DNA of 64,000 nucleotides from an uncultured archaeon. Lineage in GTDB: Archaea; Asgardarchaeota; Lokiarchaeia; Sigyniarchaeales; SOKP01. The notes under the pieces are model-generated. The model was not told where the DNA came from, did no database searches, and saw only the letters and a program-made list of their open reading frames with translations. Of the stretch, positions 7,964 to 43,586 are shown piece after piece. The position numbers were made by a program, and so were the translations under genes. Position 1 is the stretch's first letter. Each line of letters begins with the position of its first letter. The DNA lies in the NCBI GenBank assembly GCA_964388035.1, contig CAYLZE010000002.1:1-64000 (forward strand), read 5' to 3'.

Positions 7964-9646
7964 CTATACTTTAGGAGGGATTATTTTAGGAATTTTAAAT
8001 GAAAAAACACTCCCTTTTCCCAAGCTACTTTGGAACTCTATAGTTCCGCCGTGCAAATTAACGAGCTTTTTGGCTAAGGCCAATCCTAAGCCATTTCCGG
8101 GAATTGAATTAACGATGGGAGAATCGATTCTTTGGAATTCTTTGAAAATAAGGTCTTTATCTTTTTCTGCTATCCCTATTCCCGTATCTTTAACCGAAAA
8201 GATCCAGAAATCATCCTCATCTAAAACTTCTAGCGTGATACTTCCTTTCAAGGTAAATTTCACGGCATTATTTAATAAATTCGTTAATATTTGTTTGATC
8301 CTAATGGGATCGGCATATATTTCATCCACATCGTTAGAAAGTTTAATATTAAATTCTAATTCTTTTTGATTTAACATTGTTATCATGAGTGAATTAATTT
8401 GGTTTAACATGACTTGAATTTTTATCTTTTCAATTTTTAATTCTAATTTACCTGATTCGATTTTTGAAATATCTAAAATTTTACTTATCATTTCCAATAA
8501 AAGGTTTGAAGATTCTTTAATATCCTTGAGGAATTCTAGCTGCTCTCTATTTAATTTTCCATAAAGTCCTTCCAATAACAATTCCGTGAACCCTATAATG
8601 GCGTTTAGAGGAGTTCTCAATTCGTGAGACATTCTCGCCATGAAATCCGATTTAAACGCCGAAGCTTTTATAATTTCTGCCAAATATAAACTTTGGCGCG
8701 CGACTAAATCATTAAGCTCTTTTGTTCTTCTTTTTACTTCTTCTTCAAGCTTTTCTCTAAATTTTTTTTCAATTAATTCATTCTCTTTCCGTTGAGTAAT
8801 ATCTCGTATCATGCCAAAATATCCTACAAGATGTTCGTTGGAATCTTTTTTTATCGAAATTGTGGTCTCAAAAAATTTTCTTTTTTCATTCTTCTTAGTT
8901 ATTTGAATTTGCTTATTTTTATATCTTATACCCTCCTCATTTGATTCTGGACCTACTAAAAGATCTTCAGCAATGAATTCTTTATAATTTTTTCCTAATA
9001 ATTCACTGGAATCAATATTTAAAAGTTTACTTAAAGATTGATTAAAGAATGTTATATTTCCATCCAAATCTATTTCAAAATATCCTTCAATAATGCTTTC
9101 TATTATCTCTCTATATTTTTTTTCACTTTTTTTTAATAATTCAACACTTTTTTGTAACATGTCTAAATCCTCTTTTTTTTGAGACATGCTCCATAAACGG
9201 ATCTCAGGTATTTTTGAAGTAAAATCTTCAAGTTTTGATCTGGATGTAGATAATTCCTCTTCCAATCTTTTTTTATCTTTTACATTTCGTGCAATGCATA
9301 GGATCAATTCTTTTTCTTCCCGGTTTAACCTCATGCTATATCCTTCCACGGGGATTTTTTCACCTTTTATTGCTTGCAATATATACTCAAGTTCGGATCT
9401 TTCTTTTATAAGAGAAGTATAAAATGATTTTTTCTGCTTTTCATTCTTATATTGATTTTTATCGAGTATATCAAATATTGGTTTATCAATAATCTCTTTC
9501 TTATTTTTAAATTTAAGGGCTTTAAGTAGGGTGTCATTAACATCAAGAAGATTACCTTGGAGATCCATTAAAAATATTAGATCTGGAGAAATATCAAAAA
9601 AGTGTTTAAATTCTGATGAAATATCTCGCCAAATATCGAATGTCAA
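7964..9646 (-). CDS. Soluble PAS-PAS histidine kinase
   Basis: H-box MSHELRTPLN, N-box NLLNNAVKFT, DTGIG, GNGLGL; no TM segment. Confidence 0.95.
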   Translation of the reverse strand: MTFDIWRDISSEFKHFFDISPDLIFLMDLQGNLLDVNDTLLKALKFKNKKEIIDKPIFDILDKNQYKNEKQKKSFYTSLIKERSELEYILQAIKGEKIPVEGYSMRLNREEKELILCIARNVKDKKRLEEELSTSRSKLEDFTSKIPEIRLWSMSQKKEDLDMLQKSVELLKKSEKKYREIIESIIEGYFEIDLDGNITFFNQSLSKLLNIDSSELLGKNYKEFIAEDLLVGPESNEEGIRYKNKQIQITKKNEKRKFFETTISIKKDSNEHLVGYFGMIRDITQRKENELIEKKFREKLEEEVKRRTKELNDLVARQSLYLAEIIKASAFKSDFMARMSHELRTPLNAIIGFTELLLEGLYGKLNREQLEFLKDIKESSNLLLEMISKILDISKIESGKLELKIEKIKIQVMLNQINSLMITMLNQKELEFNIKLSNDVDEIYADPIRIKQILTNLLNNAVKFTLKGSITLEVLDEDDFWIFSVKDTGIGIAEKDKDLIFKEFQRIDSPIVNSIPGNGLGLALAKKLVNLHGGTIEFQSSLGKGSVFSFKIPKIIPPKV

Positions 9647-9810
9647 TTGTATTATCTCTTATATATTGAATTATTAATGATTGCTAATCTTGAAAATATA
9701 AACATCTTAACCTCAATTTTTGTTTCTCATGTATATTATCATTTTCCATCATATAAAGGGATATAAACCTCATTTTAATGATACATGTTGTATCTTGATG
9801 AATTTTCTTT

Positions 9811-10548
9811 TTAATTTTTAATTATTCTTAAATAACCTAAATAACCCGAAATGTCTCCTATTAAAACAAAAATCCAAGAGAGAAAATAAAAAATTGTAAA
9901 TCCAAACGAACCGAGAAATATATAAATACGATCAATTGATATGCATAATAAAACAAGAATATAGCTTAGTGCCATAATAAATAAGGATAAAAAAGCTTTC
10001 TTAAAGTGCGAACGGGAAGCGCTTTTATATGTCTTGAACGCTTTTATCATAAATGGAAAGTATACAATAACCATGTATCCAAAAACGGAGATAAAAACAA
10101 TTAAATCAAAAACCAACACTTCTTTTTGAAAAATAAACAATGAAATAAAAATATTAATTCCGTTATATAGCATATTTCCATATGAATAACGCCTTTCTTG
10201 TTCGCTATAAAATATCTTATCTTTCAAGTAATAGGAAAAGAAAATTGCATTAGATATAAAGACAAACGTAATTCTAAAATAGGAAATTCGTAATAAAATC
10301 CAAGATGCAGGAGTTAGAGGATCTGGCACGGTTTCATGTAAAACATAATCCATTTTTGAAAAAAGGCTCAAATATTTCGAATACCAAGAAAATAGAATGG
10401 CTAAAAAAAAATTAAGAAAAGTTAGAAACAAGAAAAGAGCTATTGCCTTCCTATTTTTAACATAGTTTAGTAGGCTTGCGATTACGATGGGTATTGTAAT
10501 TATAATTACAATTCCCTCATAGACAAGACCAATAAGATAATAGTTCAT
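9811..10548 (-). CDS. Multi-pass (about 7 TM) membrane protein of unknown function
   Basis: About seven hydrophobic stretches; co-oriented just upstream of the kinase. Confidence 0.7.
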   Translation of the reverse strand: MNYYLIGLVYEGIVIIITIPIVIASLLNYVKNRKAIALFLFLTFLNFFLAILFSWYSKYLSLFSKMDYVLHETVPDPLTPASWILLRISYFRITFVFISNAIFFSYYLKDKIFYSEQERRYSYGNMLYNGINIFISLFIFQKEVLVFDLIVFISVFGYMVIVYFPFMIKAFKTYKSASRSHFKKAFLSLFIMALSYILVLLCISIDRIYIFLGSFGFTIFYFLSWIFVLIGDISGYLGYLRIIKN

Positions 10549-11115
10549 TATTATACTGATTAATTGTTATTTCAATAATATAAAATATTTCCTTCTTCAG
10601 CAATAATTTCACTGATTTTTAAATATTATCGCATTCTATTATTTATGATGGACATTATATCCTCAATATGTATTTCTTGTTGCTCTAATTGTTTCTTTAA
10701 TTCTCATTTCACGCAGTCTGAAAGTAGTATCTCCTGATTCATCATATCTTTTTGTCCAAAATTTAAAACTATTCTTTTTTAATATAAAGATTTTATAATT
10801 TTGATATAAATCTATGTTTTTTTTGAAGCAAGTTAAGTAGTTATCATCATTCCGTGGAAAATAAGGAAATAAAGGATAAGTTTATAAAAGAAATATGTTT
10901 AAAAATAGATTCTTTTATTATGTATTACAAGAAATGATTTAAAATTATAGATTTTACAAAAAATTGATTCGCTGTTAATTCCAAATTAGATAAAAAATGT
11001 ATTCATATGTTCAATTCCTTTCAGTTGGATCTTTGACTTTTTTAAATTCAAATGGACTAATTTTAAAAATGAGTGGAGATCAAGACTTCATTTCCTAAAA
11101 GGTAGTGTAATTTTA

Positions 11116-13317
11116 ATGAATGTGAAAAAAATGGATTGCGAAAACTTATTAAAATATGCACCAGAACCTGTTATAATTGCAAATTCTAATGGGGAAATCC
11201 TTGAAAAAAATGAAGCTTTTAGAAATCTAATGGATTTTATAAATGATGGGAATAATAACAATTTAACTCTTCAAAATATTATTATATTTAAAAATAAAAA
11301 ACTTCACAAAAAGGATTTGGATCCTTTTTTAAATGAATTAAAAAACTCCAAGAAATGTGTTGAGTTTAATATCGAAATCTCAAAAAAGAAGTCCTTAGAC
11401 GTGGAAGGATTCGCAATTCCCCTTAAAGTCAATAACGAATCTCAAACTTTTATTATTTTTTTTAGAATTTTTAATGATCAACGGATTTCTCAAGAAAAGC
11501 TTAATAAATCCATGGAAGAGTTAGATAAATTATCGGAATCACTGCCAGAGTATCGATTTTGGAATCTCTTGCAAAATAAAACATCGAGTGAATTAATTGA
11601 GAAAAGTCAACAAGAATATGAAATACTTTTCCAAGAAGCACCCATAGGGTTATTGAATAGTAATAAGGAAGGTTTTATCATTAATATTAACAAGGAGGCT
11701 TTAGGGATATTTGGTCTTGAGAATTTGACGCATGAGGTTGATCGATTAAACATTTTATATGATGATCCTTTTAAATTGAGTGGTATTTCTGATATTTTTG
11801 CACGTTGCATAAATAGCAAGGAGATAATCGAGGCTGAAGCTAGAATGATGTTGGAAAGTAAGCATCCAAAGATTTTAAAATTAAAATTAGTACCTTCTAT
11901 TAATAAAAAACAAGATATTACCAATATCTTATCTGTGATAATTGAAATAACAGATTATAAGAAAAAACAAAATCTGATTAAAAAGAAAGTTAAATTAGAG
12001 AGATTAATTTCTCTTATATCTTCAAGATTTTTGAAGGAATTAGATATTGATGCGATAATAAATGAGTCATTAAAAGATATCGGTAGCTTTAGTGGAACCA
12101 GTAGGGCATATCTCTACTTAATTGATGAAAGTAAAAATGTAATGACCAATTCTCATTATTGGTATTCTCCTAAAGTAGATATGCATCAAAGATTTGTCCA
12201 AACCGTTTCCATCAATGATTTCCCTTGGGTGATACAACAGTTTCAAGAGCGAAAAGCTCTTATCATTTCAGATATTTCAAAATTACCTCCAGAAGCAAGC
12301 GCAATAAAAAAGTTCATGGAGACACAAGAAATAAAATCACTTATTGGATCCCCAATCATCATTAAAGAAGATTTGCTTGGAATTATAGGATTAGATAATA
12401 TAAAAAAAGAGAAAAAGTGGAAATCAGAGAATTTATTGCTTTTGCGTCTTTGCTCAGAAATCGTTGGTAATGCACTATTAAGGCAACAATTTTCCAAAAA
12501 ACTGGAATCGCAAGTCAATTTACGGACAAAAGAACTGAATGAAGCGTTGCAACAACAGAAACTTTATGTAGAAGAAATCACAAAAGCATCCCAATTTAAA
12601 ACGGAATTCCTTGCCACCATGTCTCATGAATTGAGGACCCCGCTGAATGCCATTATCGGCTTCACGGACCTATTATTGGAAGAGCTTTATGGCCCTTTAA
12701 ATTCTGAGCAATTGAGTTTTATGAAAGATATAAAATCCTCAGCTGAACATCAATTCGATATGATAAGTCATATCTTAAACATCTCTAAAATCGAATTAGG
12801 TCAAGTAGTATTAAAACCACAAGTCATATCGCTTGGTGAAATAGTTAATCAATTGGTTTCATCCATCAAACCTTTATATGAAAAAAAAGGAATAAATTTT
12901 AAAGTTCAGGGGTTAAAAAGTAATTTAAGAATCATTGCAGATCCTATCAAATTGAAAGAGATTTTATACAATTTATTTAGCAATGCGATTAAATTTACCA
13001 AAAATGGTAAAATTATTTTTAAATTTTCCGAAGATGTGAATAATTGGATATTTTCGGTAGAAGACTCGGGCATTGGCATCGCAGAAAAGGATTATCCTAT
13101 CATATTTAAAGATTTTAAAAGAGTCGATTCTCCCATCGTTAATTCAATTCCCGGGACGGGGTTAGGATTATCCCTTACGAAACGATTAGTCAATTTGCAC
13201 GGAGGCAACATCTTTTTTATAAGTATTATTGGAAAAGGCACAACCTTTACCTTTACTATACCAAAATCAATAACCACCCATAAATTAAGTTCTGAAGATT
13301 TTTTGGGCATTATATAA
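11116..13317 (+). CDS. PAS-PAS-GAF histidine kinase
   Basis: GAF (SRAYLY...IKSLIGSPI...GIIGLD); MSHELRTPLN; NAIKFT; GTGLGL. Confidence 0.95.
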   Translation: MNVKKMDCENLLKYAPEPVIIANSNGEILEKNEAFRNLMDFINDGNNNNLTLQNIIIFKNKKLHKKDLDPFLNELKNSKKCVEFNIEISKKKSLDVEGFAIPLKVNNESQTFIIFFRIFNDQRISQEKLNKSMEELDKLSESLPEYRFWNLLQNKTSSELIEKSQQEYEILFQEAPIGLLNSNKEGFIININKEALGIFGLENLTHEVDRLNILYDDPFKLSGISDIFARCINSKEIIEAEARMMLESKHPKILKLKLVPSINKKQDITNILSVIIEITDYKKKQNLIKKKVKLERLISLISSRFLKELDIDAIINESLKDIGSFSGTSRAYLYLIDESKNVMTNSHYWYSPKVDMHQRFVQTVSINDFPWVIQQFQERKALIISDISKLPPEASAIKKFMETQEIKSLIGSPIIIKEDLLGIIGLDNIKKEKKWKSENLLLLRLCSEIVGNALLRQQFSKKLESQVNLRTKELNEALQQQKLYVEEITKASQFKTEFLATMSHELRTPLNAIIGFTDLLLEELYGPLNSEQLSFMKDIKSSAEHQFDMISHILNISKIELGQVVLKPQVISLGEIVNQLVSSIKPLYEKKGINFKVQGLKSNLRIIADPIKLKEILYNLFSNAIKFTKNGKIIFKFSEDVNNWIFSVEDSGIGIAEKDYPIIFKDFKRVDSPIVNSIPGTGLGLSLTKRLVNLHGGNIFFISIIGKGTTFTFTIPKSITTHKLSSEDFLGII

Positions 13318-13376: not shown

Positions 13377-14654
13377 CTACATCTCAGCTTTTTTAGTCAA
13401 ATCTTTTTTTACAAACATTTCCTTTAATTCAGACATTATCGCCATTCTGACGTTTCCTTCGGGGGGTTGCGTCTTGGGAGGAGGAGTTGATCCTTTTGGC
13501 GGAGACGGAGGTTTAAGCATAGATAATTCGGGGGCGGGGACTCCCTCACTTTCACTTTTTTTTGTTGGTCTTCCTCTTTTTCTCTTTTCCATGGTTTCCA
13601 ACCGTTTTTCCATTTCCATGACATGCGTGCTTAATTGTATCACTGCGTTGATTGCTGATTCCACGAGATTTCCTAATTCTGTTAATTTTAATTGATTTGG
13701 GTCCGTGATATTGGAATGAACAGTCATTGTATTTTTTATTAATTTTGAAAATTCTGGCTCATTAGAAATCATTGAATAGATTGAACTTAAATGCACTTCA
13801 AAATTTAATTCTTTATCCTTCAAGAGCTCTTTGATGTTATCTTTTATGAATTCGATATTTAACAATACCTCTTCGTCTTCTCTGATATCGGGATCAAATT
13901 TATGGAGAAATATTAACACATGGGGAGATTCTCCTAACTTAAGAACTTCATCGATAACTTGAGTAAAATATTTTAAAGATTCTTCATATCGTTCCGGTGC
14001 TTGTAAATCTATTACATATATGAGGAGATTCAATCCGAAGAAATATTTATCCGGAGATGCTAAATATTCATTTCGATGATCCACTTGTCCACCAAAGTCC
14101 CAAATATGAATATTTATATCTTTCGTGCGTACTTCTTGCCGGCTTATCCCACGGGTGGGTTGCAAAGATGCAAGAGTTTCAATTCCCATTTGTCCTCCAA
14201 ATTTAGATAAAATGGCTGTTTTTCCCGCATTATTAAGTCCCAATACTATAATTTTCTGGTCCGGGACTATTTCAGAAACGGTCTTGCGTTTTATTCTTTG
14301 AATGATCAAGCTAATAGTTATGCCTTTTTTTAATCGTTCTTTAAATTCAGGATCTTTCTTTTTGATTTCATTAATAAGTGCCTGCTTTTTTTTATTTCGC
14401 TTAATTTTACTAAAGGGCTTTTCTTGGTCTAAACTGGCTAAATCTTTAATAGTCTCAATTTTAAATAAGTTCCAAATTAAATCAGCATCTTCCTTAGAAA
14501 GAAATTTAAAAGCTATTAAAGGAAGAATTTCTATTTTTTTAATGGATTTTAATGATGTTGAATCTATATTTTCAGTGTCAAGAAATCTCTCAATTAGCTT
14601 TATTTTTTCTGTTTCTTCTTTACCCATAATATTTGTAGAATTTTTGATTTTCAT
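13377..14654 (-). CDS. Rag/Arf-like small GTPase with N-terminal HhH-like region and C-terminal coiled coil plus Pro-rich tail
   Basis: G1 GLNNAGKT, G2 PTRG, G3 WDFGGQ, G4 HKFD; FKIETIKDLA; PPSPPKGSTPPPKTQPP. Confidence 0.9.
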   Translation of the reverse strand: MKIKNSTNIMGKEETEKIKLIERFLDTENIDSTSLKSIKKIEILPLIAFKFLSKEDADLIWNLFKIETIKDLASLDQEKPFSKIKRNKKKQALINEIKKKDPEFKERLKKGITISLIIQRIKRKTVSEIVPDQKIIVLGLNNAGKTAILSKFGGQMGIETLASLQPTRGISRQEVRTKDINIHIWDFGGQVDHRNEYLASPDKYFFGLNLLIYVIDLQAPERYEESLKYFTQVIDEVLKLGESPHVLIFLHKFDPDIREDEEVLLNIEFIKDNIKELLKDKELNFEVHLSSIYSMISNEPEFSKLIKNTMTVHSNITDPNQLKLTELGNLVESAINAVIQLSTHVMEMEKRLETMEKRKRGRPTKKSESEGVPAPELSMLKPPSPPKGSTPPPKTQPPEGNVRMAIMSELKEMFVKKDLTKKAEM

Positions 14655-14722
14655 GTAAAAAAAAATTAATTCACAGTGGTAATAATAATCCTATTTTATA
14701 AATTTAAGGAAAAGCAAAATCT

Positions 14723-15400
14723 TCAAATCAATTTGAAGATCTCCAATACAAATTGACTAATATTTAATATTTTCAATAGGGGTTCAAAACGGGAGAAATC
14801 AAAAAATTTAAGCAGGTATCCATCAGCTTCTGTTTCCTTCAATCTTTTTATAACTTCAGTCTTAGGTATAGCTGTAATATAATATATTAAAGCATTACTG
14901 AGCCTTTCTGTCTCTCGAATTTTCTTACATGAGCTAAATCCATCGATGTCGGGTTTCATAATATCAATTAAAATAACTCTTGGAAATTATCGCTCTAATT
15001 CTTCCAAACACCTTGTTCCTGTTCTAGTACCTTTAAAACTTATTCCAAAAGATTCAAAATAATCTTTTAAAAGCAATATTGTCGATTGATCATCATCAAC
15101 TATTAAAATGTCATATGTTTGTTTATTATGAGAGGAATTTAGAAAAATTTCATCAATATGTCTCCCTAACGGTTTGCCTTTTAAATCAACTTCAAAATAT
15201 CCCTCAACCATATTTTCCATAATCTCCCGATATTTCATTTCACTCTTTTTCAATAAATCAACGCTTCTTTCTAACAGATCTAAATTATCTTTACTTTGAG
15301 AAAGGTTCGATAAACGTATTTCGGGTATTTTGGAAGAGAGATTTTCTAATTCGGATTTCATCTTATTTAACTCTTCCTTTAATTGTCTTATATCCCTTGT
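14723..15400 (-). pseudogene. Chimeric relic: PAS-kinase fragment fused to a response-regulator fragment, with an in-frame stop
   Basis: SKIPEIRL...EGYFEVDLKG matches 7964..9646; IDEIFLN...DDD...ER*FPRVILIDIMKPDIDG matches 18670..19434; TAA at 14987-14989 separates two same-frame ORFs. Confidence 0.85.
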
Positions 15401-15405
15401 ACTCG

Positions 15406-15442
15406 TAGGAAACCCTTCCCTTCAGGGAGGGGGGTCATTTCA
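15406..15442 (+). mobile_element. Possible IS200/IS605-family end remnant (subterminal hairpin)
   Basis: TAGGAAACCCTTCCC-TTCA-GGGAGGGGGGTCATTTCA: GC-rich hairpin in AT-rich DNA, ending in TTCA, at the truncation point of the relic. Confidence 0.55.
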
Positions 15443-15695
15443 TGAATAAAAAGGAAAAGAAGAGAAAATTTAAAAAAAATAGGTTTAATAAAGGATAATT
15501 TCATTAATTTTTTATAAAAATGGTTTTTAAATATAGTATAGATCTAAATAGAAAGAGAATCCAAAATAAGATTTTATAAATTCCCTCCCTTCATAAAAAA
15601 ATGTATTTCTTTGCACTATTATCATTATTAGGCGCTTTATTTACATTTTTCTTGGGTACATTTATTTTAGCAAAAAGTAACAAGCAAAAATTAAA

Positions 15696-15863
15696 TCTCC
15701 TTATGTTGCCTCTACTTCAGGAACAGGTTTGGGATTGGCTTTAACAAAGAGATTAGTAAACTTGCAAGGTGGCGAAATTGGTTTTAACAGTATTTTGAGA
15801 AAAGGAACAACTTTCTTTTTCACAATTCCTAAAATAAAAGCTCAATTATCCATGAAAATTTAA
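15696..15863 (+). pseudogene. Histidine kinase HATPase C-terminal remnant
   Basis: SPYVASTSGTGLGLALTKRLVNLQGGEIGFNSILRKGTTFFFTIPK; no upstream gene body. Confidence 0.9.
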
Positions 15864-15900
15864 TTATTAATAGTCTTGATGATCGAATAGGATAGATAAA

Positions 15901-16000
15901 AATGTTTTAAAATACTCACCAGAACCAATTTTTATTGTCAATCTAAAGGGAGAAATATTAGACGGTAATGAGTATTTTGAAAGGATTATTGATAAAAAAA
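15901..16000 (+). pseudogene. N-terminal PAS remnant of a kinase paralogous to 11116..13317
   Basis: NVLKYSPEPIFIVNLKGEILDGNEYF vs NLLKYAPEPVIIANSNGEILEKNEAF. Confidence 0.8.
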
Positions 16001-16004
16001 CAAC

Positions 16005-16106
16005 AGGTACTACTTCAGAAATAGTCTTATTTCGGATTCTTTGAATAATTAAACTAATTGTGATCGCTTTTTTAACTCTTTCTTCGAACTCAGGCTCTTT
16101 ATGCAA
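16005..16106 (-). pseudogene. Remnant of a GTPase paralogous to 13377..14654
   Basis: KEPEFEERVKKAITISLIIQRIRNKTISEVVP vs KDPEFKERLKKGITISLIIQRIKRKTVSEIVP. Confidence 0.9.
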
Positions 16107-16294
16107 AAATTTTATTCGATTCTAAAAGTCTTTAACAATACATATTATAAAAAAAAATAATGAATTTAACAATCCTTAGTTAAAAATGAACTATCAAAAA
16201 AAGAATATATAAAGATTTAAATTTATTTATTACTACCTTTTTGTTAAAATAGTTTAATGAAATTTCCTCTATCTTTAAATTAAAAATATTCCCA

Positions 16295-18658: not shown

Positions 18659-18669
18659 AACTTTCAAAA

Positions 18670-25667: not shown

Positions 25668-26022
25668 TATTTTTATCGTTGAAGACGACGTTTCCATGTG
25701 TAGAATGTATAAGATCCTCTTGGAAATAGAGGGATTTACCGTTTTAGGTTGGGCGAATAATGGGGATGAAGCACTGAAAATGCTTAATTCTGAGGAAATA
25801 AATCCCGATGTCATTCTAATGGATCATAGAATGCCCGTAAGAAATGGGTTTGATACTGCATTAAATTTATTAAAAAACAATAAAAATTTAAAAATTATAT
25901 TTATAAGTGCAGATAATAGCATTAAAGATAAAGCTTTAAAATTGGGAGCACTCCACTTTATTGAAAAACCTTTTCATAATCAGGATTTAATAAAAATAAT
26001 AAATAATATTATTATGGCTTAA
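25660..26022 (+). CDS. Single-domain CheY-like response regulator (probable non-ATG start at 25660)
   Basis: In-frame IVSIFIVEDD lies upstream of the track ATG (25696); LMDHRMP, ISA, KPF. Confidence 0.85.
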   Translation: MVSIFIVEDDVSMCRMYKILLEIEGFTVLGWANNGDEALKMLNSEEINPDVILMDHRMPVRNGFDTALNLLKNNKNLKIIFISADNSIKDKALKLGALHFIEKPFHNQDLIKIINNIIMA

Positions 26023-34820: not shown

Positions 34821-34967
34821 GAGCTCATATAAATATTTTTTTGATTTAGAATTTATTATCAATATAAAAATTATTAAATATATTCTTTTATATTTAGATT
34901 AACTAAAATAAAAATAAAAAAAGTATAATTTTCATTTAAAAAAAAATTAAAAATTATAATTTTATTT

Positions 34968-35348
34968 GTGGTAAGTAAAATTATGGTAAAAAAAGTATAT
35001 GTTATAGAAGATAATGATAAAAATTTAAAATTATTCAAAGCGATATTAAATAAAATACCTGGTATTGAATTATACACCGAGACAAGGGGAGATACAGGCT
35101 TAGAACTAGTTAAATCAGGAGATCCTGATTTGATTATTTTAGATATTCAACTTCCCGAAATAAGTGGTATTGATATATGCAAAGAATTGAGAACTCTGGA
35201 AAAGTTTAAAGAGATACCTATCTTGGCAGTGACCTCATTTGCAATGAAGGGTGATAAAGAAAGGATAATGTCAGCGGGCTTTACAAAATACATTTCCAAA
35301 CCAATTAAAGTTCAAGAGTTTAGAGAAGTTATTCTTGAGTTTATCTAG
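34968..35348 (+). CDS. Single-domain response regulator, DivK-like (start may be ATG 34983)
   Basis: IEDN, ILDIQLPEISG, AVTSFAMKGDKERIMSAG, ISKPI. Confidence 0.92.
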   Translation: MVSKIMVKKVYVIEDNDKNLKLFKAILNKIPGIELYTETRGDTGLELVKSGDPDLIILDIQLPEISGIDICKELRTLEKFKEIPILAVTSFAMKGDKERIMSAGFTKYISKPIKVQEFREVILEFI

Positions 35349-35456: not shown

Positions 35457-36425
35457 ATGGATTCTAACGAAAATTTTGATGGAAAAAAACTTGTTTCAGA
35501 TACTTCTAAGAAGCATAATATTAAAAAGAAAGTTTTGTTATTGGGTAAACCGGAAACAGGAAAATCAAGTATTAAAAAAGTTATTTTTGAAGGAGTAGAT
35601 CCAATGGAAATAATCGTTAATCCCTTAACTCCCACGAGAGGAATCGATCCTTCAGTTCATTCCTGGTTTGATTTAACAATAGGTCTATTTGATACTTCTG
35701 GCCAGGAATTGAGGAGTTTATTTTCAGATTCTGCAGAACAAGAATTAGCATTTCAAAATTGTGATATTATTATTTATTTGTTCGATTATTATCAATGGAT
35801 TATCGATAAAAAAGAAATATTGGAAGATATAAAGATAATTTCATTAATTAAAGAAAAGTTAAAGATAAATGCAAGGGTAATAACTTTTTTTCATAAAATA
35901 GACTTAATCGAAGTAAAAACGAGAGAAAGCCAAATAAAAGACATTAAAAAAATCTTTGACATTCCTATTTATTTTACTAGTGTTAAATATGAATTGTTAT
36001 ACCGTTTATATGAAGCATTTTATGATATTTTAAGTAATTTTTCTGAAGAAACCTCACGAATTAAGAACATATTGGATGAGAAATTAACCGTATTTCCAAA
36101 ATCCATGTTTTTTATTACGAATGCAAACAACAATATTGTTGTCCAAACATCTTCTAAAGATTTTAATTTGTCACACATTAATTATATTCATTATTTAATT
36201 GCGATGTTAAATCTTACCTTAGAAAAAATGAGAGCCAACGATAAAATTGACCATTTAATCCTTCAAACCCAAAATAATTATAATATTATCATGAAACATT
36301 TAGAACTTTTAGATTACAATTTAAAAAGTATTATATGTATTTCAGAAACCTTGTCATCTAATAAATTAATCTGGTTAGTAGGAGAAATAGCCTTACAGTT
36401 AAATAGTTTTTACCATCTAGAATAA
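35457..36425 (+). CDS. Rag/Gtr-like GTPase with roadblock-like C-terminal domain
   Basis: GKPETGKS, PTRG, DTSGQE, HKID; MFFITNANNNIVVQT; paralogue of 33498 without the N-terminal domain. Confidence 0.88.
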   Translation: MDSNENFDGKKLVSDTSKKHNIKKKVLLLGKPETGKSSIKKVIFEGVDPMEIIVNPLTPTRGIDPSVHSWFDLTIGLFDTSGQELRSLFSDSAEQELAFQNCDIIIYLFDYYQWIIDKKEILEDIKIISLIKEKLKINARVITFFHKIDLIEVKTRESQIKDIKKIFDIPIYFTSVKYELLYRLYEAFYDILSNFSEETSRIKNILDEKLTVFPKSMFFITNANNNIVVQTSSKDFNLSHINYIHYLIAMLNLTLEKMRANDKIDHLILQTQNNYNIIMKHLELLDYNLKSIICISETLSSNKLIWLVGEIALQLNSFYHLE

Positions 36426-36477: not shown

Positions 36478-37770
36478 TCATCTTTTCCTTTTTAATTCTC
36501 GAAATTCTTGGATTTTGGAACGTATTAAGGCTTTTTTTTGTATGAGTGTTAAATCCATGGAATTTATCAATTCCTCTAATTTTTCCCGATATTGTTCAAC
36601 ATTTAAATTTAAATCAAAAATTTCATCTAGAGGATTCTGTTTTTGGCTTTCGCCATCTTTTAAGTTATCTTTTCCAATAACAGGATTCTTATATACTTCA
36701 AATCTAATTTTGTTGTCTTTAACTTGGATGTTTTTAGGATCCAAGAGCCTATCAATAAATTTCATGAGAAAGTTCTTTAATATGGGTTTAAGATCATTTA
36801 TCCAAGCAATACCATCTAATTTTTTATATTTTTCTAAATCTTCCCTTTCTCTTAATTCACTAGAGATTAACATTTTTAAATAGCTTTCTTGATATAAGGG
36901 TTTAAAATTATCTGTTAATCCCGTGAGAATATCTTCAGTTAGACTTTGAACTAAAACATCGATTATTTCAGGATACTCATAGAATTGACCGAATTTAAAA
37001 TAAGAATTAAGGAATTGCTCAATGGATTTCTCCAACTCTTTTGGTTCCAAGGTTCCTTTTTTGATTAGAAAGGTTTTTATTATTCTCTCGAGTAGAGTAC
37101 CCCTAAATTTTCCGTCATATTCAGTTGTATCAACATTAATTGCTGGGAGCGAGTTCTTTTTCCTTATATTATCCTTTCTTGAATAAAGAATATTAACATA
37201 ATCTTTAACGATCACATTTGAAAGCCCCATTCTTAATGTTATAATATTAATATGCAATGGCTCATCTGACGAAGATTGGGGATAATTTTTTTCATATTTA
37301 TTCAATATATCTTCAATCTTTAAAACTTCCGCAACATAATCATTGAAAAAAATTTCATAAAGTGCAGCAATTTCATATTCCTTGATTTCTTTTTCTAATA
37401 ATTTTCTTAAAAAACGATCATAATTTAAGAAAAAACAAGAGATACAATCATCAATAGCGAGTGCTAAATCATCATTCGGATAATTAGTTTGTACTAGATA
37501 TTTCTTATATTCAAGTCGAATTTTTTGAGCGCGAATCCATTCTAAAGTAAAATCGAATATTTCCCTATTAAAAGTTAATTTATTCTCAAAATGTCTAAGA
37601 ATTTCAAGAACTTCATGAGATGTCGTGCCAATAGATTGACTGCTTAAAAATTTAGCTGCTAATTGAAGATTGCTGAGGTTTTGAAATTTTTGTTTCATCC
37701 TATGATAATAGGATGCTAATCTTTCCTCATCTATGGTAAATAAATTGTCTACTTCTTCTTGTTCTGGCAT
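36478..37770 (-). CDS. Hypothetical protein (predicted mostly helical)
   Basis: 430-aa ORF co-oriented with the Rab/longin genes; no motif recognised. Confidence 0.75.
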   Translation of the reverse strand: MPEQEEVDNLFTIDEERLASYYHRMKQKFQNLSNLQLAAKFLSSQSIGTTSHEVLEILRHFENKLTFNREIFDFTLEWIRAQKIRLEYKKYLVQTNYPNDDLALAIDDCISCFFLNYDRFLRKLLEKEIKEYEIAALYEIFFNDYVAEVLKIEDILNKYEKNYPQSSSDEPLHINIITLRMGLSNVIVKDYVNILYSRKDNIRKKNSLPAINVDTTEYDGKFRGTLLERIIKTFLIKKGTLEPKELEKSIEQFLNSYFKFGQFYEYPEIIDVLVQSLTEDILTGLTDNFKPLYQESYLKMLISSELREREDLEKYKKLDGIAWINDLKPILKNFLMKFIDRLLDPKNIQVKDNKIRFEVYKNPVIGKDNLKDGESQKQNPLDEIFDLNLNVEQYREKLEELINSMDLTLIQKKALIRSKIQEFRELKRKR

Positions 37771-37808
37771 GATTTTTTACAATATGCGCCCATTAAAGTT
37801 TACCATTT

Positions 37809-38849
37809 CTAATTTTTATTGTCTAACAACATGTTAATCTGATTAAGATCGGCATCTGATATTAGGTTCCATCCAAAATCTGAGAAGTTAGTGTTGAATA
37901 CTTTTAAATTATGCTTCATTTGTTCATCATTATCTAATATGGTCCTTACCTTTTTTTGATAAAAGATTATATCGGTAATTTCTTCAAAATCGACATTCTT
38001 CAGGGGAATTAAAATACATCCTATACTTCGTTTTATACCTTCCTTTACGCAGAAATCTTCAATATATAATACTTCTTTTTCTTTTAAGGTTAGATCAATT
38101 TGGCGAAGGTTAGGAAAAATACCTTTTTTATCAAATATGATTAAGGTATCATTTAGCAAATTTTCATAATAATCGGGTAATATTGCCATCACGTAAAAGG
38201 AAGGAATGAGATCTAAAATTTGTCTTCTTATTGAATCCTCTGTCTTAAAAGTGTATAATTTCGAACTTTTTATATTTTCACCAATTTTCCTTTCAATTAA
38301 TCCGATACAATAATAAGTCCTCTTTTCTTTCCAATAAATCTTTCTCGAAGAACCGAGATAATATTCCATTAAATGTAATCCTCTGATTAATTCTTCCTTA
38401 ATCAATTTTTCCCGACTATAATTACCCTCTGAAAGCTTAAAGTTGAAATATATTTCTTGAATTATGCTAGGATGGACATATTCTCTTAACTTTTGAAATA
38501 ATATTTTTAAATCTTCAGTATAAGAAGAGCCGACTAATGCAAATAAATTTGTTAGTTCTCCTTTCTTAGATTCAATTGTCGAATTCAAAGCGAAAAAAGT
38601 TTGTAATACATCAGCATTAATTGTACCTTTTTGTTTTAATGAAATTGAATATTCGATAAAATCTATTTTCCAAGAACCCTCCTTTCCATTAGCGGCAGTC
38701 ATAAAAATTGGTCCTAAATATTGAAATGGAAGCATTTTCAATTTACTCTTTTGTTCAATTGTTAATTCTTCTTCATATTTAATCTCCTCAAAAACGAGGT
38801 TAGATTCATCCGAAAAGAATAAGGCTAATATCGTATTCGATTCATTCAT
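37809..38849 (-). CDS. Hypothetical protein
   Basis: 346-aa ORF, alpha/beta pattern; no motif recognised with confidence. Confidence 0.75.
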   Translation of the reverse strand: MNESNTILALFFSDESNLVFEEIKYEEELTIEQKSKLKMLPFQYLGPIFMTAANGKEGSWKIDFIEYSISLKQKGTINADVLQTFFALNSTIESKKGELTNLFALVGSSYTEDLKILFQKLREYVHPSIIQEIYFNFKLSEGNYSREKLIKEELIRGLHLMEYYLGSSRKIYWKEKRTYYCIGLIERKIGENIKSSKLYTFKTEDSIRRQILDLIPSFYVMAILPDYYENLLNDTLIIFDKKGIFPNLRQIDLTLKEKEVLYIEDFCVKEGIKRSIGCILIPLKNVDFEEITDIIFYQKKVRTILDNDEQMKHNLKVFNTNFSDFGWNLISDADLNQINMLLDNKN

Positions 38850-38956
38850 TTTCTTATGAAATAATACATGATGTTTTTTTTAAGAGTTTTTAATCAAATA
38901 ATAAACTCAAAATTATTTAATTTAAATTTTAGGGATATTATTTTCGTTTATATATA

Positions 38957-39802
38957 TTAAATTAATATAAATTGTTTTATTAGAAATGGTTCAAGATTTA
39001 AATGTCGGATTAATATCCAGTTATTGAATATGTAATGGAACACCTTGCTCATACGAAAATATTTTATAGTTAAATCCTCACCTAATTGATTTTTCATTAT
39101 ATTAATAATCTCAGTAAGTAAATTAACCAGAAAAACTTTCACTAGCAGGGGATCACATTTAGTTGGATTAATTTTAAAAATATTAATACCTTTCTCTCTT
39201 TCAAAATATAATTTTTGTAGTTCTGGATCGTCTTTTACCTCAGATTCATTTTTAAATGTATTAAAGAATTCCTCAACTTTTTGATAAATTTCTTCTTTTT
39301 GCCTCTCTGAGATATAGGATATCAAAATCTTTTGAATTAAATTAAATAATTGTTGAAAAATTCCGAGAAGATCATAAAAATCAGCTAAAACATTCATAAT
39401 TTCTGCGTCTTCCCATTGAAAATAAATTTTTTCAATTATTTGATTAAATTTATCATAAATTCTAAGATTTCCATCCCATTGTTTTCCTTTTGTTTTCCAT
39501 ATCTCTTCGAATTCCTTAATAAAGCTATCTTTAATTGTACTTAACCTTGCTCTCAAAATGTATGCGGTTATGTCTTTCGTATCCGCAGCAATATATAATA
39601 AATCATGTTCCGCATCTAAGATATATATCCAACGTAATCCCGCCATTTCAATAGATTCTATTGGTTGTTGAAATTCAACCATCGTAAACTGATTAAATGC
39701 CGATAATAATCCGCTTAGGAGTTCATTATTAACTGTAATTTTCATAAATGATTTATATAGTAACTTTAAACCCGAAGAACTTTCAATAATCCATACATTC
39801 AT
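38957..39802 (-). CDS. Longin-domain protein with helical C-terminus
   Basis: VWIIESSSGLKLLYK...LLSGLLSAFNQF...IESIEMAGLRWIY, typical Asgard longin pattern. Confidence 0.8.
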   Translation of the reverse strand: MNVWIIESSSGLKLLYKSFMKITVNNELLSGLLSAFNQFTMVEFQQPIESIEMAGLRWIYILDAEHDLLYIAADTKDITAYILRARLSTIKDSFIKEFEEIWKTKGKQWDGNLRIYDKFNQIIEKIYFQWEDAEIMNVLADFYDLLGIFQQLFNLIQKILISYISERQKEEIYQKVEEFFNTFKNESEVKDDPELQKLYFEREKGINIFKINPTKCDPLLVKVFLVNLLTEIINIMKNQLGEDLTIKYFRMSKVFHYIFNNWILIRHLNLEPFLIKQFILI

Positions 39803-39825
39803 TTTTTATCTTCTCTATCGACTTA

Positions 39826-40341
39826 TCATTGATAAATTTCTTTCTCACGGTTAAGAATTTTTTTAGTGAGAGATTCGAAAGCTTCTGAGACATTTATGCC
39901 ATTTTTAGAAGATACCTTCTTATATTCAAATAGATTATGTTTCTCCATTAGTGAATTCGGAACCTGATCCTCAACCGAAATTTTTTCTTGAAGGTCTAAT
40001 TTTGAACCAATAAAAATAATCGGGAGTTTCTTATCATACATCCTGCAAATTTCGACCCACTCACCTATATTTTCTAATGTGTCCCTACGGGTCAAATCAA
40101 ATACAATTAGAGCCCCTTTCGCACCCAATGCATATCTTTTAAGTAAATGGCGAAAATGTTCTTGTCCTCCAAAATCCCATAACTGGAGCATGATATGTAA
40201 TTCATTAATATCTAATTCTTTAATAATAAATTCTACTCCGAGAGTAGTCTGTGTATGAGAGAGAAAGATGCCTTTCACATATCTATTTAATAAGGTAGTT
40301 TTCCCGACACCCTCATCTCCAGCTGTAATTATTTTTAACAC
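39826..40341 (-). CDS. Rab-like small GTPase
   Basis: GDEGVGKT, TLGVEF, LQLWDFGGQE, SKLD, SSK. Confidence 0.93.
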   Translation of the reverse strand: MLKIITAGDEGVGKTTLLNRYVKGIFLSHTQTTLGVEFIIKELDINELHIMLQLWDFGGQEHFRHLLKRYALGAKGALIVFDLTRRDTLENIGEWVEICRMYDKKLPIIFIGSKLDLQEKISVEDQVPNSLMEKHNLFEYKKVSSKNGINVSEAFESLTKKILNREKEIYQ

Positions 40342-40619: not shown

Positions 40620-41552
40620 ATGCGCAGAAAAATATGTTTGATAGGGAGAGCGGGAACAGGAAAAACAAGTATTAAAAAGGTGTTATTTGAAGGAATAGAG
40701 CCTAAAAACATCATGCTTCATTCACCTGAACCCACCCGAGGTATTGAAATAAATATTTATGATTGGTTAGATCTTGAGGTAGGACTTATTGATACATCGG
40801 GGCAAGAGTTATCTTTTTTCTTAGAAAACAAGGAAGAAAAAAATCAAATTTTTGAAAATTCAAATATAGTATTATATCTCTTGGATTACCCCACATGGAC
40901 ATTTAAATCAACTGAAATTATAAAAGAGATTAAAAAGGTATATAATATTCTTAAGGAAGAATATCCAAATGCCCAATTAATTATAATCTTTCATAAAATT
41001 GACTTAATAAATCAGAAAATTGACGGAAATTACCAAAACTATCGAGATTCATTGTCTTCACAATTAGAAATTCCTGAAAAAATTAAAATATTTTTTACAA
41101 GTATTCATCCAGAATTAATATTTAGCTTATTTAATGCAATTTCAGAAATATTAGCCACATTATCCCAAGAGACAAAAGTAATGAAGGATATATTAGATAA
41201 ATTTTTATTAAATGTAGCGCAAACGATATGTATCATTATAAATACTGATAATAGCATTTTAGTCCAATCCTTTACACCAGATTTTGATACTAAAATAGTT
41301 TATTCCATTCAACGAAAATTACATTCTTTCATTCAAAGTCTTGAAATATCGCTAGAAAAAGAATATGTCATATGTTTTATAGATTGCGGAAGAAAAGTTT
41401 TAAGAATAATTTTAGGAGATATTCACAGTTTAGATCCATGCTTGGGTAAATTAATTTGTTTATCTGAAGATTTTGATAGAGAAAAGATAATTATGTTATT
41501 TCAAAAAATTAGAAACAATTTGAGAACAATTAAAATAGCTAATAATAAATAA
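40620..41552 (+). CDS. Rag/Gtr-like GTPase with roadblock-like C-terminal domain
   Basis: GRAGTGKT, PTRG, DTSGQE, HKID; ICIIINTDNSILVQS. Confidence 0.88.
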   Translation: MRRKICLIGRAGTGKTSIKKVLFEGIEPKNIMLHSPEPTRGIEINIYDWLDLEVGLIDTSGQELSFFLENKEEKNQIFENSNIVLYLLDYPTWTFKSTEIIKEIKKVYNILKEEYPNAQLIIIFHKIDLINQKIDGNYQNYRDSLSSQLEIPEKIKIFFTSIHPELIFSLFNAISEILATLSQETKVMKDILDKFLLNVAQTICIIINTDNSILVQSFTPDFDTKIVYSIQRKLHSFIQSLEISLEKEYVICFIDCGRKVLRIILGDIHSLDPCLGKLICLSEDFDREKIIMLFQKIRNNLRTIKIANNK

Positions 41553-41561
41553 TAAAGGGAC

Positions 41562-42611
41562 GTGAAAGTGCTAAGACAAGTATACATCATAAAAAATGAA
41601 TCGGTTTTAATAAAAAGAATCTATGGAAAAGGGTTAAATGATAATGAACTTGAGACTGCTTTGGGTGATTTGAAAAAGGAAAGAATTTCAAAAGTACGTA
41701 ATGAAATGGGATTTTTCACATTTTTTAAATATAAATTATCTTTTCTCATTGCAAAAGAGCATGAGTTAATTTTTATATTAATTACGGGATTAGGTGATAG
41801 CATAGATAGAATTAAGACAGAAATATTGAAACTGAAAAATAACTTTTTAAATTATTTTTCCGAGATTATAGATAATTCTATTGATCAAAAAACGTTAGAA
41901 GTTTTTATTCCATTTTTAGATTCCATTCATAGAAATTTAAAGCCCAAGATTTCTCTCGTAGGATTTTCGGGAGTTGGGAAAACGACAATAACGAACTTAA
42001 TTAAAGCTAAGGAAATTCCTATTGAACACATTCCTACTATTACGGGTGATGTTGCTACCATTAAAATTGGAAAATTAGAATACTTATTATGGGATTTCGC
42101 AGGGCAAGAGCAATTTAGTTTCTTATGGAATAAGTTTATTCAAGGAAGTGATGCAATCTTAATAATTACAGATTCTACTCTTATGAATGTAGAAAAAAGT
42201 AAGTTCTTCTTGGAATTAATTAATGAAGAAGCCCCTTATTCCCATGTCGCTGTAATAGCAAATAAACAAGATTTACCTGATGCTTTGAAAACAGAAAATA
42301 TTGAACAAATCATGGGATTGAAAACGTACTCTATTGTGGCTATTGATCCTAATAATAGACAAAGAATATTCAACATAATAGCTGATGTTTTAGAAATGAG
42401 CGCACAAATTTCTCCTCTTCTAAGTCCTTTGTTACAGAGAGATGAGTTGCTCGCTAAAGCTGAAAAAGCTTTAGAAGAAGATAGATTGAAAGAAACCATA
42501 GAAATATTTCAAAAGATATCTGATCTTTGCATTGAACTAGGGGATGATACGTTAGCCACTGAATTTTACCAAAAATCAATGATTTTTAAAAGTCATCTTG
42601 AATCGTTTTGA
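41562..42611 (+). CDS. Longin - Arf-like GTPase - TPR-like helical hairpin
   Basis: N-terminal LRQVYIIK...LIFILITG; GFSGVGKT, PTIT, WDFAGQE, NKQD; C-terminal AEKALEE...LCIELGD. Confidence 0.85.
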   Translation: MKVLRQVYIIKNESVLIKRIYGKGLNDNELETALGDLKKERISKVRNEMGFFTFFKYKLSFLIAKEHELIFILITGLGDSIDRIKTEILKLKNNFLNYFSEIIDNSIDQKTLEVFIPFLDSIHRNLKPKISLVGFSGVGKTTITNLIKAKEIPIEHIPTITGDVATIKIGKLEYLLWDFAGQEQFSFLWNKFIQGSDAILIITDSTLMNVEKSKFFLELINEEAPYSHVAVIANKQDLPDALKTENIEQIMGLKTYSIVAIDPNNRQRIFNIIADVLEMSAQISPLLSPLLQRDELLAKAEKALEEDRLKETIEIFQKISDLCIELGDDTLATEFYQKSMIFKSHLESF

Positions 42612-42630
42612 ATAAAATTAAATGGAATTC

Positions 42631-43185
42631 TTAATTTAACTGACCCGACAATTGCATCATTTTATGAGCAATTGATGCAAATAAAGTTTCCACATTTTCT
42701 CCTGTTTTAGAAGAACATTCGATAAAATCATATAGATTATGTTCTTTCCCAAATTTTCCGGCATATTCTCTTTCAATAGATCTTTTTCCTTCATTTTCCA
42801 AATCCAGCTTTCCTCCTACTAATAAAATTGGAAAAGATTGTTCTTGGAACTCTTGGTTTTTATTAATGACCTTTAGCCAACTTTCTAAATTCTTTAAACT
42901 TGAGAACCTAGTAATATCAAACATGAAAACACCTCCAGAAGCACCAATCACGTAATTAGGTAAGAGTGATTTAAATTGTTGCTCTCCGGCAAAATCCCAT
43001 ATTTGAAGTTGGGCTTTTTTTCCTTCAATTTCAACGATCTTGGTATAAAACTCGACACCAATAGTCATTTGAAAATTATCTCGGTATTTCCCTGTGACGT
43101 ACCGATTTACTAATGTTGTCTTTCCTACTCCACCATCTCCGAAAATACACGTCTTATAGCGGAGAAAGTCCTTTTGATCGTTCAA
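42631..43185 (-). CDS. Rab-like small GTPase
   Basis: GDGGVGKT, TIGVEF, LQIWDFAGEQ, GKLD, SSK. Confidence 0.93.
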   Translation of the reverse strand: MNDQKDFLRYKTCIFGDGGVGKTTLVNRYVTGKYRDNFQMTIGVEFYTKIVEIEGKKAQLQIWDFAGEQQFKSLLPNYVIGASGGVFMFDITRFSSLKNLESWLKVINKNQEFQEQSFPILLVGGKLDLENEGKRSIEREYAGKFGKEHNLYDFIECSSKTGENVETLFASIAHKMMQLSGQLN

Positions 43186-43250
43186 TTTTTAGACCTTTTT
43201 TTTTTAAATTATAATTATATTGTTTGTATTAAAACAGAAACAATCATTAT

Positions 43251-43586
43251 TTATTTTTTTACTAGCTTATTAATTTTTTCTTGTAAAAGAATGTTCTCAT
43301 CCCTTAATCTTTCAATTTCTAACATTAAAGTATTAGTTATCAATAATACTTGTTCTTTAGAAAAAATATCATCATCTGCCAGCTTTTTAGTTTCCACGCC
43401 CCTTATTTCTAAATTTTTATCAAGATACAAGGTGGTTAATATATCTTTTAATTCTCCGTGTAAATAAACATAGGGAAATGGAAATTCGGATTGATTCTTA
43501 ATTATGGATTTCTGAAGCATTATTTCGTGAATAGCATTACAATAGGGACATTTGTAATTTCTTGAAATACAGCTTTTTTGATCCAT
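43251..43586 (-). CDS. Small putative zinc-binding protein with C-terminal coiled coil
   Basis: CPYCNAIH...PFPYVYLHG...LYLDKNLEIRG; heptad-like tail. Confidence 0.75.
   Translation of the reverse strand: MDQKSCISRNYKCPYCNAIHEIMLQKSIIKNQSEFPFPYVYLHGELKDILTTLYLDKNLEIRGVETKKLADDDIFSKEQVLLITNTLMLEIERLRDENILLQEKINKLVKK

Follow-up and report, generated by a model that had tools for sequence, protein, structure and literature searches.

The 64,000-nucleotide stretch of lokiarchaeial DNA analysed here (hereafter the window) corresponds to positions 1-64000 of contig C2, in an assembly of 5.47 Mb and 211 contigs that is 96.7% complete with 7.3% contamination. Its central feature is an island, from position 7,964 to position 43,586, in which genes for two-component signalling proteins and for small GTPases are intermingled (Table 1). 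The inventory, drawn up from the listing of open reading frames (ORFs) and from Pfam scans, comprises seven histidine kinases (HK1 to HK7), four receiver proteins (RR1 to RR4) and nine small GTPases; Gtr1_RagA was the best Pfam family for six of the latter, one is Arf-like and two are Ras/Rab-like. An initial annotation made from the sequence had proposed this census, with all kinases soluble and six GTPases of HKxD type, and the Pfam matches, motifs and hydropathy values bear it out. It had also noted that the island holds no intact metabolic gene, and indeed none was found by the Pfam scan of the ORFs between 7.9 and 43.6 kb. The two kinase-GTPase adjacencies to which it drew attention are real as judged from the ORF coordinates: HK2 and G1 are convergent and 60 bp apart, HK7 and G2 are co-directional and 169 bp apart, and the receiver gene RR4 does sit among GTPase genes. 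The island is composite. It consists of a conserved core (~13.4-36.4 kb), which includes a longin-type protein that we call LonDHp, and of a separate Rab/Arf part (36.5-43.6 kb). The core is an enlarged and rearranged copy of a gene cluster conserved in this lokiarchaeial order.

Table 1. Coordinates, strand and basis of assignment of the features in and around the island (aa, amino acids)
Feature	Position	Strand	Basis and remarks
HK1, soluble PAS-HisKA-HATPase kinase	7964-9646	-	Pfam; H-box SHELRTPL, no transmembrane segment
245-aa unassigned protein, likely membrane	9811-10548	-	Kyte-Doolittle 2.69 at residue 185; outside conserved cluster
HK2, soluble PAS-GAF-HisKA-HATPase kinase	11116-13317	+	Pfam; H-box SHELRTPL; convergent with G1
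G1, Rag-like GTPase (HKFD), 131-aa N-extension, Pro-rich tail	13377-14654	-	Gtr1_RagA E 2e-22
Debris of island paralogs	14650-16300		blastx 58% to RR1, 69% to HK2, 69-75% to G1
HK3, REC-PAS x3-HisKA-HATPase kinase	16295-18658	+	Pfam; H-box SHELKTPL
RR1, DHp-like helix keeping His (SHMLKEPL) plus receiver	18670-19434	-	Response_reg E 6e-20, HisKA E 4e-4
LonDHp, predicted NPRL2/FLCN-type longin plus histidine-less DHp hairpin	19847-20491	+	AlphaFold2, structural neighbours, hhalign, ortholog alignment
HK4, PAS-GAF-PAS-HisKA-HATPase kinase, 1063 aa	20701-23892	+	Pfam
RR2, single-domain receiver	23950-24414	+	Pfam; acceptor Asp present
HK5, REC-(SHDINN-type helix)-HATPase kinase	24474-25667	+	Pfam HATPase_c; sequence
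RR3, single-domain receiver	25696-26022	+	Pfam; acceptor Asp present
HK6, REC-PAS-HisKA-HATPase kinase	26234-28795	+	Pfam; H-box SHELRTPL
HK7, PAS x3-HisKA-HATPase kinase	28820-30859	+	Pfam; H-box SHELRTPL; upstream of G2
G2, RagA/Gtr1-like GTPase (HKID), winged-helix-like C-terminal domain	31028-31936	+	Pfam
G3, Rag-like GTPase (HKID), 340-aa C-terminal extension	31973-33505	-	Pfam; 8-bp overlap with G4
G4, longin-Rag-like GTPase-C-terminal domain, single chain	33498-34862	-	Pfam, AlphaFold model, Foldseek
RR4, single-domain receiver	34968-35348	+	Pfam E 9e-24; divergent from G4
G5, Rag-like GTPase (HKID)	35457-36425	+	Pfam
Co-directional module: Rab-like GTPase 39826-40341 and unassigned ORFs 38957-39802, 37809-38849, 36478-37770	36478-40341	-	Ras E 5e-41
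G6, Rag-like GTPase (HKID)	40620-41552	+	Pfam; motif
G7, Arf-like GTPase (NKQD), 125-aa N-extension	41562-42611	+	Pfam; motif
Rab-like GTPase	42631-43185	-	Pfam Ras E 3e-45
111-aa unassigned ORF, preceding Rab-like GTPase	43251-43586	-	no Pfam or PDB match

HisKA and HATPase_c were above the Pfam cut-offs in six of the seven kinases; HK5 combines HATPase_c with a non-canonical SHDINN helix. No segment resembling a transmembrane helix was found in any of the seven, the highest mean Kyte-Doolittle value over 19 residues being at most 1.42, and three of them begin with a receiver domain. Response_reg was above its cut-off for seven domains of the island, with an invariant acceptor aspartate column in their alignment. 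RR1 is without an ATPase domain, and a ribbon-helix-helix at its N-terminus is only suspected. The kinases can be traced to four or more lineages: one subfamily consists of HK1, HK2, HK6 and HK7, and HK3, HK4 and HK5 fall elsewhere, HK4 in a different lineage as the sister of a kinase on another contig (C34:21250) and HK5 in a lineage of its own. An origin by a single local tandem expansion was ruled out, since HK3, HK4 and HK5 come from these other lineages.

The HKxD form of the G4 motif (HKFD or HKID) is present in all six Gtr1_RagA-type GTPases, and PF04670 was above cut-off in each. The G-domain profile of G2 was closest to Gtr1/RagA in the PDB (E 1e-13). The C-terminal domains fall into two sets, one common to G2 and G3 (hhalign 65%), the other to G4, G5 and G6 (hhalign 100%); that of G2 showed a weak match to HTH_5, an ArsR-type helix-turn-helix, in two of seven orthologs. 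The model of G4 comprises a longin domain, a G domain and a C-terminal domain for which the predicted local distance difference test (pLDDT) value is below 50. Its top Foldseek matches were Gtr1/Gtr2, RagA/RagC and LokiRagO, a lokiarchaeal RagA-like protein with a crystal structure; the N-terminus matched NPRL2. The model could be aligned to full-length Gtr1/RagA across 260-310 columns, the C-terminus being of low confidence. In the longin part of G4, W24-D25 is invariant, which may recall the WD motif of C9orf72, a non-catalytic subunit (PMC12290439), and is taken here as a lead. The N-extensions of G1, G4 and G7 gave no usable Pfam match at E up to 10. Elsewhere in the genome, a one-strand module (C96:13641-18361) encodes an ArsR-type winged helix (111 aa), a small Arf/Rag-like GTPase (176 aa), a membrane MASE3-PAS kinase (858 aa) and a receiver protein (320 aa); judging from its domains, it looks like a split counterpart of the fusion of GTPase and winged helix found in G2.

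LonDHp is encoded by a single-copy gene. Its orthologs in families f1, f2 and f4 of the order are 51-76% identical to it along the whole protein. A profile search did not detect it in any of 226 genomes belonging to 28 other families of the phylum. The AlphaFold2 model, built from a 14-sequence alignment (mean pLDDT 72), predicts a longin fold at residues ~14-140, with the strand/helix order beta-beta-alpha-beta-beta-beta-alpha, followed by a C-terminal helical hairpin. The best structural neighbours were NPRL2 chains of GATOR1 (Z 13.1-13.6 over 133-135 residues, root mean square deviation 3.1-3.3), followed by FLCN (Z 12.4), yeast Npr2 and a lokiarchaeal longin; the generic longins VAMP7, Sec22b, AP sigma and Fuzzy had Z values of 11 or less. 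At the sequence level, Folliculin was the sole Pfam family matched by all 14 LonDHp members tested, and the search with the LonDHp profile matched no FLCN or NPRL2 chain. Two features are invariant in the 29 orthologs. One is G29-P30, placed between strands 1 and 2 (residues 18-25 and 29-35), the other is R82, within the loop formed by residues 78-84. A GP motif together with an arginine finger is the signature common to FLCN, NPRL2, SMCR8 and one class of Asgard longins (PMC12290439). R82 would correspond roughly to residues 73-81 of NPRL2, as judged from the alignment ranges only (14-147 of the model versus 5-146 of NPRL2).

The 65 C-terminal residues of LonDHp match the DHp profile of the genome's kinases (hhalign 91.5%, score 33), with scores of 15 or less for reversed and column-shuffled decoys, and the hairpin is closest to the H-box region of the island's own kinases. 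The position of the phospho-histidine is occupied by Leu154, and by L, M, I or V across all 29 orthologs. According to the model and to these profile comparisons, LonDHp is an NPRL2/folliculin-type longin joined to a kinase dimerisation hairpin minus its phospho-histidine. Shallow profile-profile comparisons revealed no link between its longin domain and the N-terminus of G4, the 37809-38849 protein or the other unassigned ORFs. The initial annotation had seen several longin-like domains in the island; the models and structural matches support the longin fold only for LonDHp and for the N-terminus of G4.

To compare the locus with its relatives, 28 LonDHp neighbourhoods, many of which end at contig ends, were labelled with domain profiles and by best match to the window proteins. 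The controls were 20 regions of the same contigs, chosen at fixed offsets, from six of the genomes with LonDHp. A GTPase gene and a kinase or receiver gene were found together in 26 of the 28 neighbourhoods, across the three families, versus none of the 20 control regions; in the two exceptions LonDHp lies near a contig end. The densities of these gene classes per 20 kb were 4.3, 2.9 and 2.3 around LonDHp versus 0.55, 0.10 and 0.15 in the controls. Retention of the linkage in relatives had been chosen beforehand as the test on which the proposal of an integrated island could fall, and the linkage is kept. The commonest gene order in relatives is RR1< G1< LonDHp> G2> HK> HK> G3< G4< RR4>. The members most often retained are G1-like (23/28), G2-like (20/28), HK7-like (20/28) and G4-like (19/28) genes, followed by G3-like and RR4-like (16/28 each) and RR1-like (11/28) genes. 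G2 directly follows LonDHp on the same strand in 19 neighbourhoods, with gaps of 30-97 bp where the start codons were refined, and G1 lies next to it, upstream and divergent, in 13. Besides LonDHp and the soluble PAS/GAF kinases, the conserved core thus comprises RR3 and RR4 as single-domain receivers, RR1 with its His-bearing DHp-like helix, and G1 to G4 as four orthogroups of Rag-like HKxD GTPases. An HK3-like/RR1-like pair is found again in relatives, orthologs of HK6 (46-57% identical) lie within the cluster of other genera, and those of RR4 (55-74% identical) adjoin the G4/G3 pair.

LonDHp and full-length G4 orthologs were both present in 25 genomes and both missing from 25, with six discordant genomes that are mostly fragmented assemblies or contain pseudogenes; the two genes are within 12 kb of each other wherever the contigs are long enough. 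Their presence is mixed within genera. Because of this variation, we conclude that the cluster is an accessory unit, repeatedly gained or lost as one. The relatives are kin to one another, so that presence and absence counts are non-independent tests. A stronger argument comes from rearrangement: some genera, as well as the other two families, show a different gene order, yet the gene set is kept. The window has itself departed from the common order. Compared with a same-genus relative, it carries HK4, RR2 and HK5 as extra genes between LonDHp and RR3; the HK4/RR2 pair, which clusters of genus g9 contain, was not seen in the cluster of the same genus (L018).

The right-hand part of the island behaves differently. 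The 346-residue protein encoded by 37809-38849 belongs to a multi-copy family whose distribution does not track LonDHp, and outside the genus its relatives are on other contigs or more than 100 kb from LonDHp. Because this linkage is lost outside the genus, the 36.5-43.6 kb region is a separate module, linked to the core only within the genus, and the proposal of a single 35-kb circuit fails for the Rab/Arf-like right-hand third. The genes 37809-38849 and 36478-37770 form an adjacent pair found three times in the genome, twice beside a Rab-like GTPase. Its copies are at 36478-38849 in the window, at C12:24231-26308 and at C1:135465-137754, the second gene of the C1 copy being broken; those of C1 and of the window are the ones near Rab-like GTPases. 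No usable Pfam match was obtained at E up to 10 for 36478-37770, 37809-38849, 38957-39802 and 43251-43586, and PDB sequence searches with 43251-43586, 36478-37770 and 38957-39802 gave chance-level matches only. The longin, DENN and roadblock labels proposed in this region correspond to weak Atlas leads (NPR2/C9orf72, 0.85; Roadblock/Fuz_longin, 0.80), and Robl_LC7 gave no Pfam match anywhere in the island at E up to 10. From the NPR2/C9orf72 leads, the 37809-38849/36478-37770 pair may be a heterodimeric longin-type regulator. The N-extension of G7 (41562-41939) is homologous to the N-terminus of the 38957-39802 protein (38957-39340; hhalign 95% over 118 columns). That 281-aa protein is a member of an Asgard-wide family of hypothetical proteins of ~280 aa (Atlas score 0.97).

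The surroundings of the island are ordinary: they contain radical SAM, nitroreductase, HepT/MNT, peptidase and dehydrogenase genes, with an MFS transporter at each edge. A recent insertion between duplicated MFS transporters was considered and left no sign, the two flanking copies being only 31% identical. The HepT-like RNase and nucleotidyltransferase (MNT) pair, at 3898-4764 on the minus strand just outside the island, resembles a type VII toxin-antitoxin system. A gene of the leucine carboxyl methyltransferase (LCM) family is found at 54154-55047 on the plus strand (Pfam E 9e-32); this family includes the eukaryotic PP2A methyltransferase. Within the island, the protein encoded by 9811-10548 had no usable Pfam match even at E up to 10. 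The 14.65-16.3 kb segment contains a PAS piece of HK1 type fused to an RR1-like receiver that is broken into two ORFs, C- and N-terminal kinase pieces and a piece of the G1 N-extension. As compared with the intact genes, this debris points to recent recombination between island paralogs.

How the core might operate can be sketched as follows. Using their PAS and GAF domains, the kinases would sense cytoplasmic signals and in turn phosphorylate the receivers. LonDHp would read the phosphorelay through its pseudo-DHp hairpin, which would either dock a receiver in the manner of a kinase DHp or pair with a hairpin from a kinase or RR1. The phosphorelay state would in this way gate the action of the LonDHp longin domain on a neighbouring Rag-like GTPase, G2 in most genomes, perhaps jointly with the G4 longin. 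RR1 and the winged-helix-like tails that G2 and G3 carry would be the likely outputs. Functional coupling of the core is well supported, because the linkage is conserved and because domains of both kinds are fused. On the strength of gene content and linkage, we think it quite likely that the core genes work in one pathway. Slightly more cautiously, we favour an overall reading of the locus as an accessory signalling cluster that couples a phosphorelay to Rag-like GTPases and lies beside an unrelated Rab/Arf module. That LonDHp bridges the phosphorelay and the GTPases has, from its predicted architecture, a little less than an even chance. Narrower versions are doubtful. LonDHp could act as a GTPase-activating protein (GAP) through Arg82, which the alignment and the model make conceivable and which we nevertheless rate as rather improbable. 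It is unlikely that LonDHp is a phosphorelay-gated GAP of G2, relying on Arg82 and the GP motif and acting with the G4 longin. The same reading, spelled out as a pathway from PAS/GAF kinase to receiver, longin GAP, Rag-like switch and transcription, is unlikely to the same degree.

Several observations weigh against the coupling. Searched with profiles of the window's own domains, the genome yields about 80 ORFs for small GTPases, 47 for kinases and 23 for receivers, seven or eight of the last being in the island. When the GTPases were collapsed into clusters and placed at random, five clusters had a kinase or receiver gene no more than 1-2 kb away, versus 2.7-3.5 expected (P 0.14-0.27), so that no significant genome-wide enrichment of kinase and receiver genes near GTPases was seen. 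For the Rag-like GTPases alone, the comparison that the initial annotation had suggested, three proximities were observed versus 0.6-0.8 expected (P about 0.02-0.03); two of the three are the island itself. Five Rag-like GTPase genes at C29:18383-39632 have no kinase or receiver gene within 15 kb, and Rag-like arrays therefore exist also without two-component genes. Proximity of kinases and GTPases is not a general rule in this genome. In the window, moreover, LonDHp is followed by a kinase gene and G2 comes after the kinases, so that the canonical pairing is broken; the Folliculin and HisKA matches of the window LonDHp are below the curated Pfam cut-offs; and the equivalence of R82 with the finger of FLCN and NPRL2 is only approximate, being read from alignment ranges. 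Finally, the co-loss of linked genes can be explained by single deletions, with no need for a shared function. The idea of an integrated kinase-GTPase island thus survives for the core, whose linkage is conserved in three families, and neither for the right-hand part nor as a genome-wide rule. At C7:64167-66970, a CheB methylesterase gene (receiver plus CheB) adjoins that of a 317-aa Roadblock-Ras fusion GTPase (Robl_LC7 E 5e-5, Ras E 6e-37).

The same observations bear on the alternatives. The permutation test first suggested that the island could consist of two paralog arrays, one of kinases (8-31 kb) and one of GTPases (31-43 kb), brought together by chance. A genome this rich in both families makes such encounters easy, cluster-level proximity within it is not significant, and the right-hand GTPase module is in fact only locally juxtaposed. 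The explanation was dropped for the core after the cross-genome comparison: the linkage in 26 of 28 neighbourhoods and three families, versus none of 20 controls, contradicts it, and so do the four or more kinase lineages, which are not what one tandem expansion would give. It stands only for the 36.5-43.6 kb part, and as an account of the island as a whole it is hardly credible. The genes could also form a co-inherited signalling island without direct cross-talk, in which separate pathways run in parallel and are moved as a block or co-regulated. The patchy distribution within genera, typical of a unit of gain and loss, fits this explanation, as do the recombination debris, the lineage-specific insertions of unrelated kinase lineages and the missing genome-wide association of kinases with GTPases. 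It accounts poorly for the retention of the same orthogroups when the order is reshuffled between genera, for the kinases that separate LonDHp/G2 from G3/G4, on one strand and at short distances, and for LonDHp, a single polypeptide that unites a GTPase-regulator fold with a kinase-derived hairpin. We regard it as an appreciable, if minor, possibility.

A last possibility keeps the coupling and reverses its direction, as in the actinobacterial conservon: longins would set the Rag-like GTPases to one nucleotide state or the other, and this state would control the kinases, with LonDHp inhibiting or modulating them by forming mixed dimers through its dead DHp hairpin. There is a precedent in Streptomyces, where the conservon GTPase and roadblock protein bind the kinase in a manner that depends on their catalytic activities (PMC4316618). 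The closeness of the LonDHp hairpin to the H-box region of the island kinases would suit mixed dimers, and several cluster kinases begin with a receiver domain and hence are themselves regulated. The cluster, however, is without a membrane kinase, a Pfam-detectable Robl_LC7-type protein or an MglA-type GTPase, and we consider the reverse wiring decidedly unlikely. Coupling that would run from the phosphorelay to the Rag-like GTPases, the direction proposed in the initial annotation, is what we retain as the putative reading of the core.

Rag-, Arf- and Rab-like GTPases and longin and roadblock proteins abound in Asgard archaea, none with a known regulator-target pair or input signal. The question of which GTPase family is targeted by the Asgard longins with a GP motif and an arginine finger was posed in PMC12290439, and candidate partners can now be named: G2 first, which lies beside LonDHp in 19/28, then G1, G3 and G4, with the kinases and receivers as candidate inputs. 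If the coupling is true, a phosphorelay of bacterial type would have driven a Rag-longin switch already before the origin of eukaryotes; if, in addition, the gated-GAP reading is true, the cluster would offer a living model for what preceded GATOR1/FLCN-Rag nutrient signalling, in which a two-component system takes the place of the TOR-pathway inputs. If the coupling fails, a conserved neighbourhood in Asgard signalling islands would prove to be a poor guide to function.

A link between longins and two-component systems in these archaea has already been published. The part of Liu et al. 2020 on which we draw (bioRxiv 10.1101/2020.10.19.343400, Fig. 5c) describes Asgard NPRL2-like longins fused to two-component domains and suggests that Asgard growth regulation is centred on two-component systems with 'eukaryotic' regulators. 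LonDHp is a fusion of that kind, as it joins an NPRL2/FLCN-like longin and a kinase-derived, two-component-related domain in one polypeptide. A claim to a new principle is weakened because of this earlier report. As far as that part goes, it deals with domain architectures and does not cover the conserved cluster, the Rag-like partners, the loss of the histidine from the DHp or the set of receivers and kinases, and no description of this cluster with its Rag-like partners was found in the literature on Asgard GTPases and longin-two-component proteins. The same part reports an Asgard operon of a LAMTOR1-like roadblock protein, a Rab-like GTPase and a DENN protein. The two Rab-like GTPases of the island (39826-40341 and 42631-43185) have co-directional unassigned neighbours, and the 36.5-43.6 kb module may be related to that operon.

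With the eukaryotic longin complexes GATOR1 (NPRL2-NPRL3), FLCN-FNIP and SMCR8-C9orf72, LonDHp shares the predicted fold (Z 12-13.6) and the GP motif, and it has an invariant loop arginine. The cluster also encodes Rag-like HKxD GTPases, and a partner subunit could be supplied by the G4 longin. The differences are as clear: the cluster has neither a DENN nor an NPRL2 C-terminal domain, and no DEPDC5, Ragulator or TOR context; in LonDHp a pseudo-DHp takes the place of the C-terminal half; and the position that a dimerisation-mediating roadblock domain has at the C-terminus of canonical Rag GTPases is occupied in G2 and G3 by a winged-helix-like domain.

In bacteria, links between small GTPases and two-component systems are established for Frz-RomR-MglA/MglB, for the conservons and for Rup group 1 (PMC4316618). 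The Frz-RomR/FrzX/FrzZ-MglA/MglB system of Myxococcus (PMC3441718, PMC4316618) is alike in that receivers relay a two-component-type output to a GTPase and its roadblock-type regulator; there, the genes are unclustered, the GTPase is MglA, the regulator is MglB, and no longin-DHp fusion takes part. The actinobacterial conservon, made of the CvnA kinase, the MglB-type roadblock protein CvnB, CvnC and the CvnD GTPase (PMC4316618), is likewise a conserved prokaryotic cluster in which a small GTPase of the Ras superfamily is combined with a histidine kinase and with a regulator of the longin/roadblock superfamily. The conservon is a fixed four-gene operon with a membrane HAMP kinase and an MglA-family GTPase, whereas the cluster described here encodes receivers, the fusion of longin and pseudo-DHp, Rag-like GTPases of four orthogroups and a number of soluble kinases of PAS/GAF type. 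This cluster is thus an analogue of the conservon and not a member of that group.

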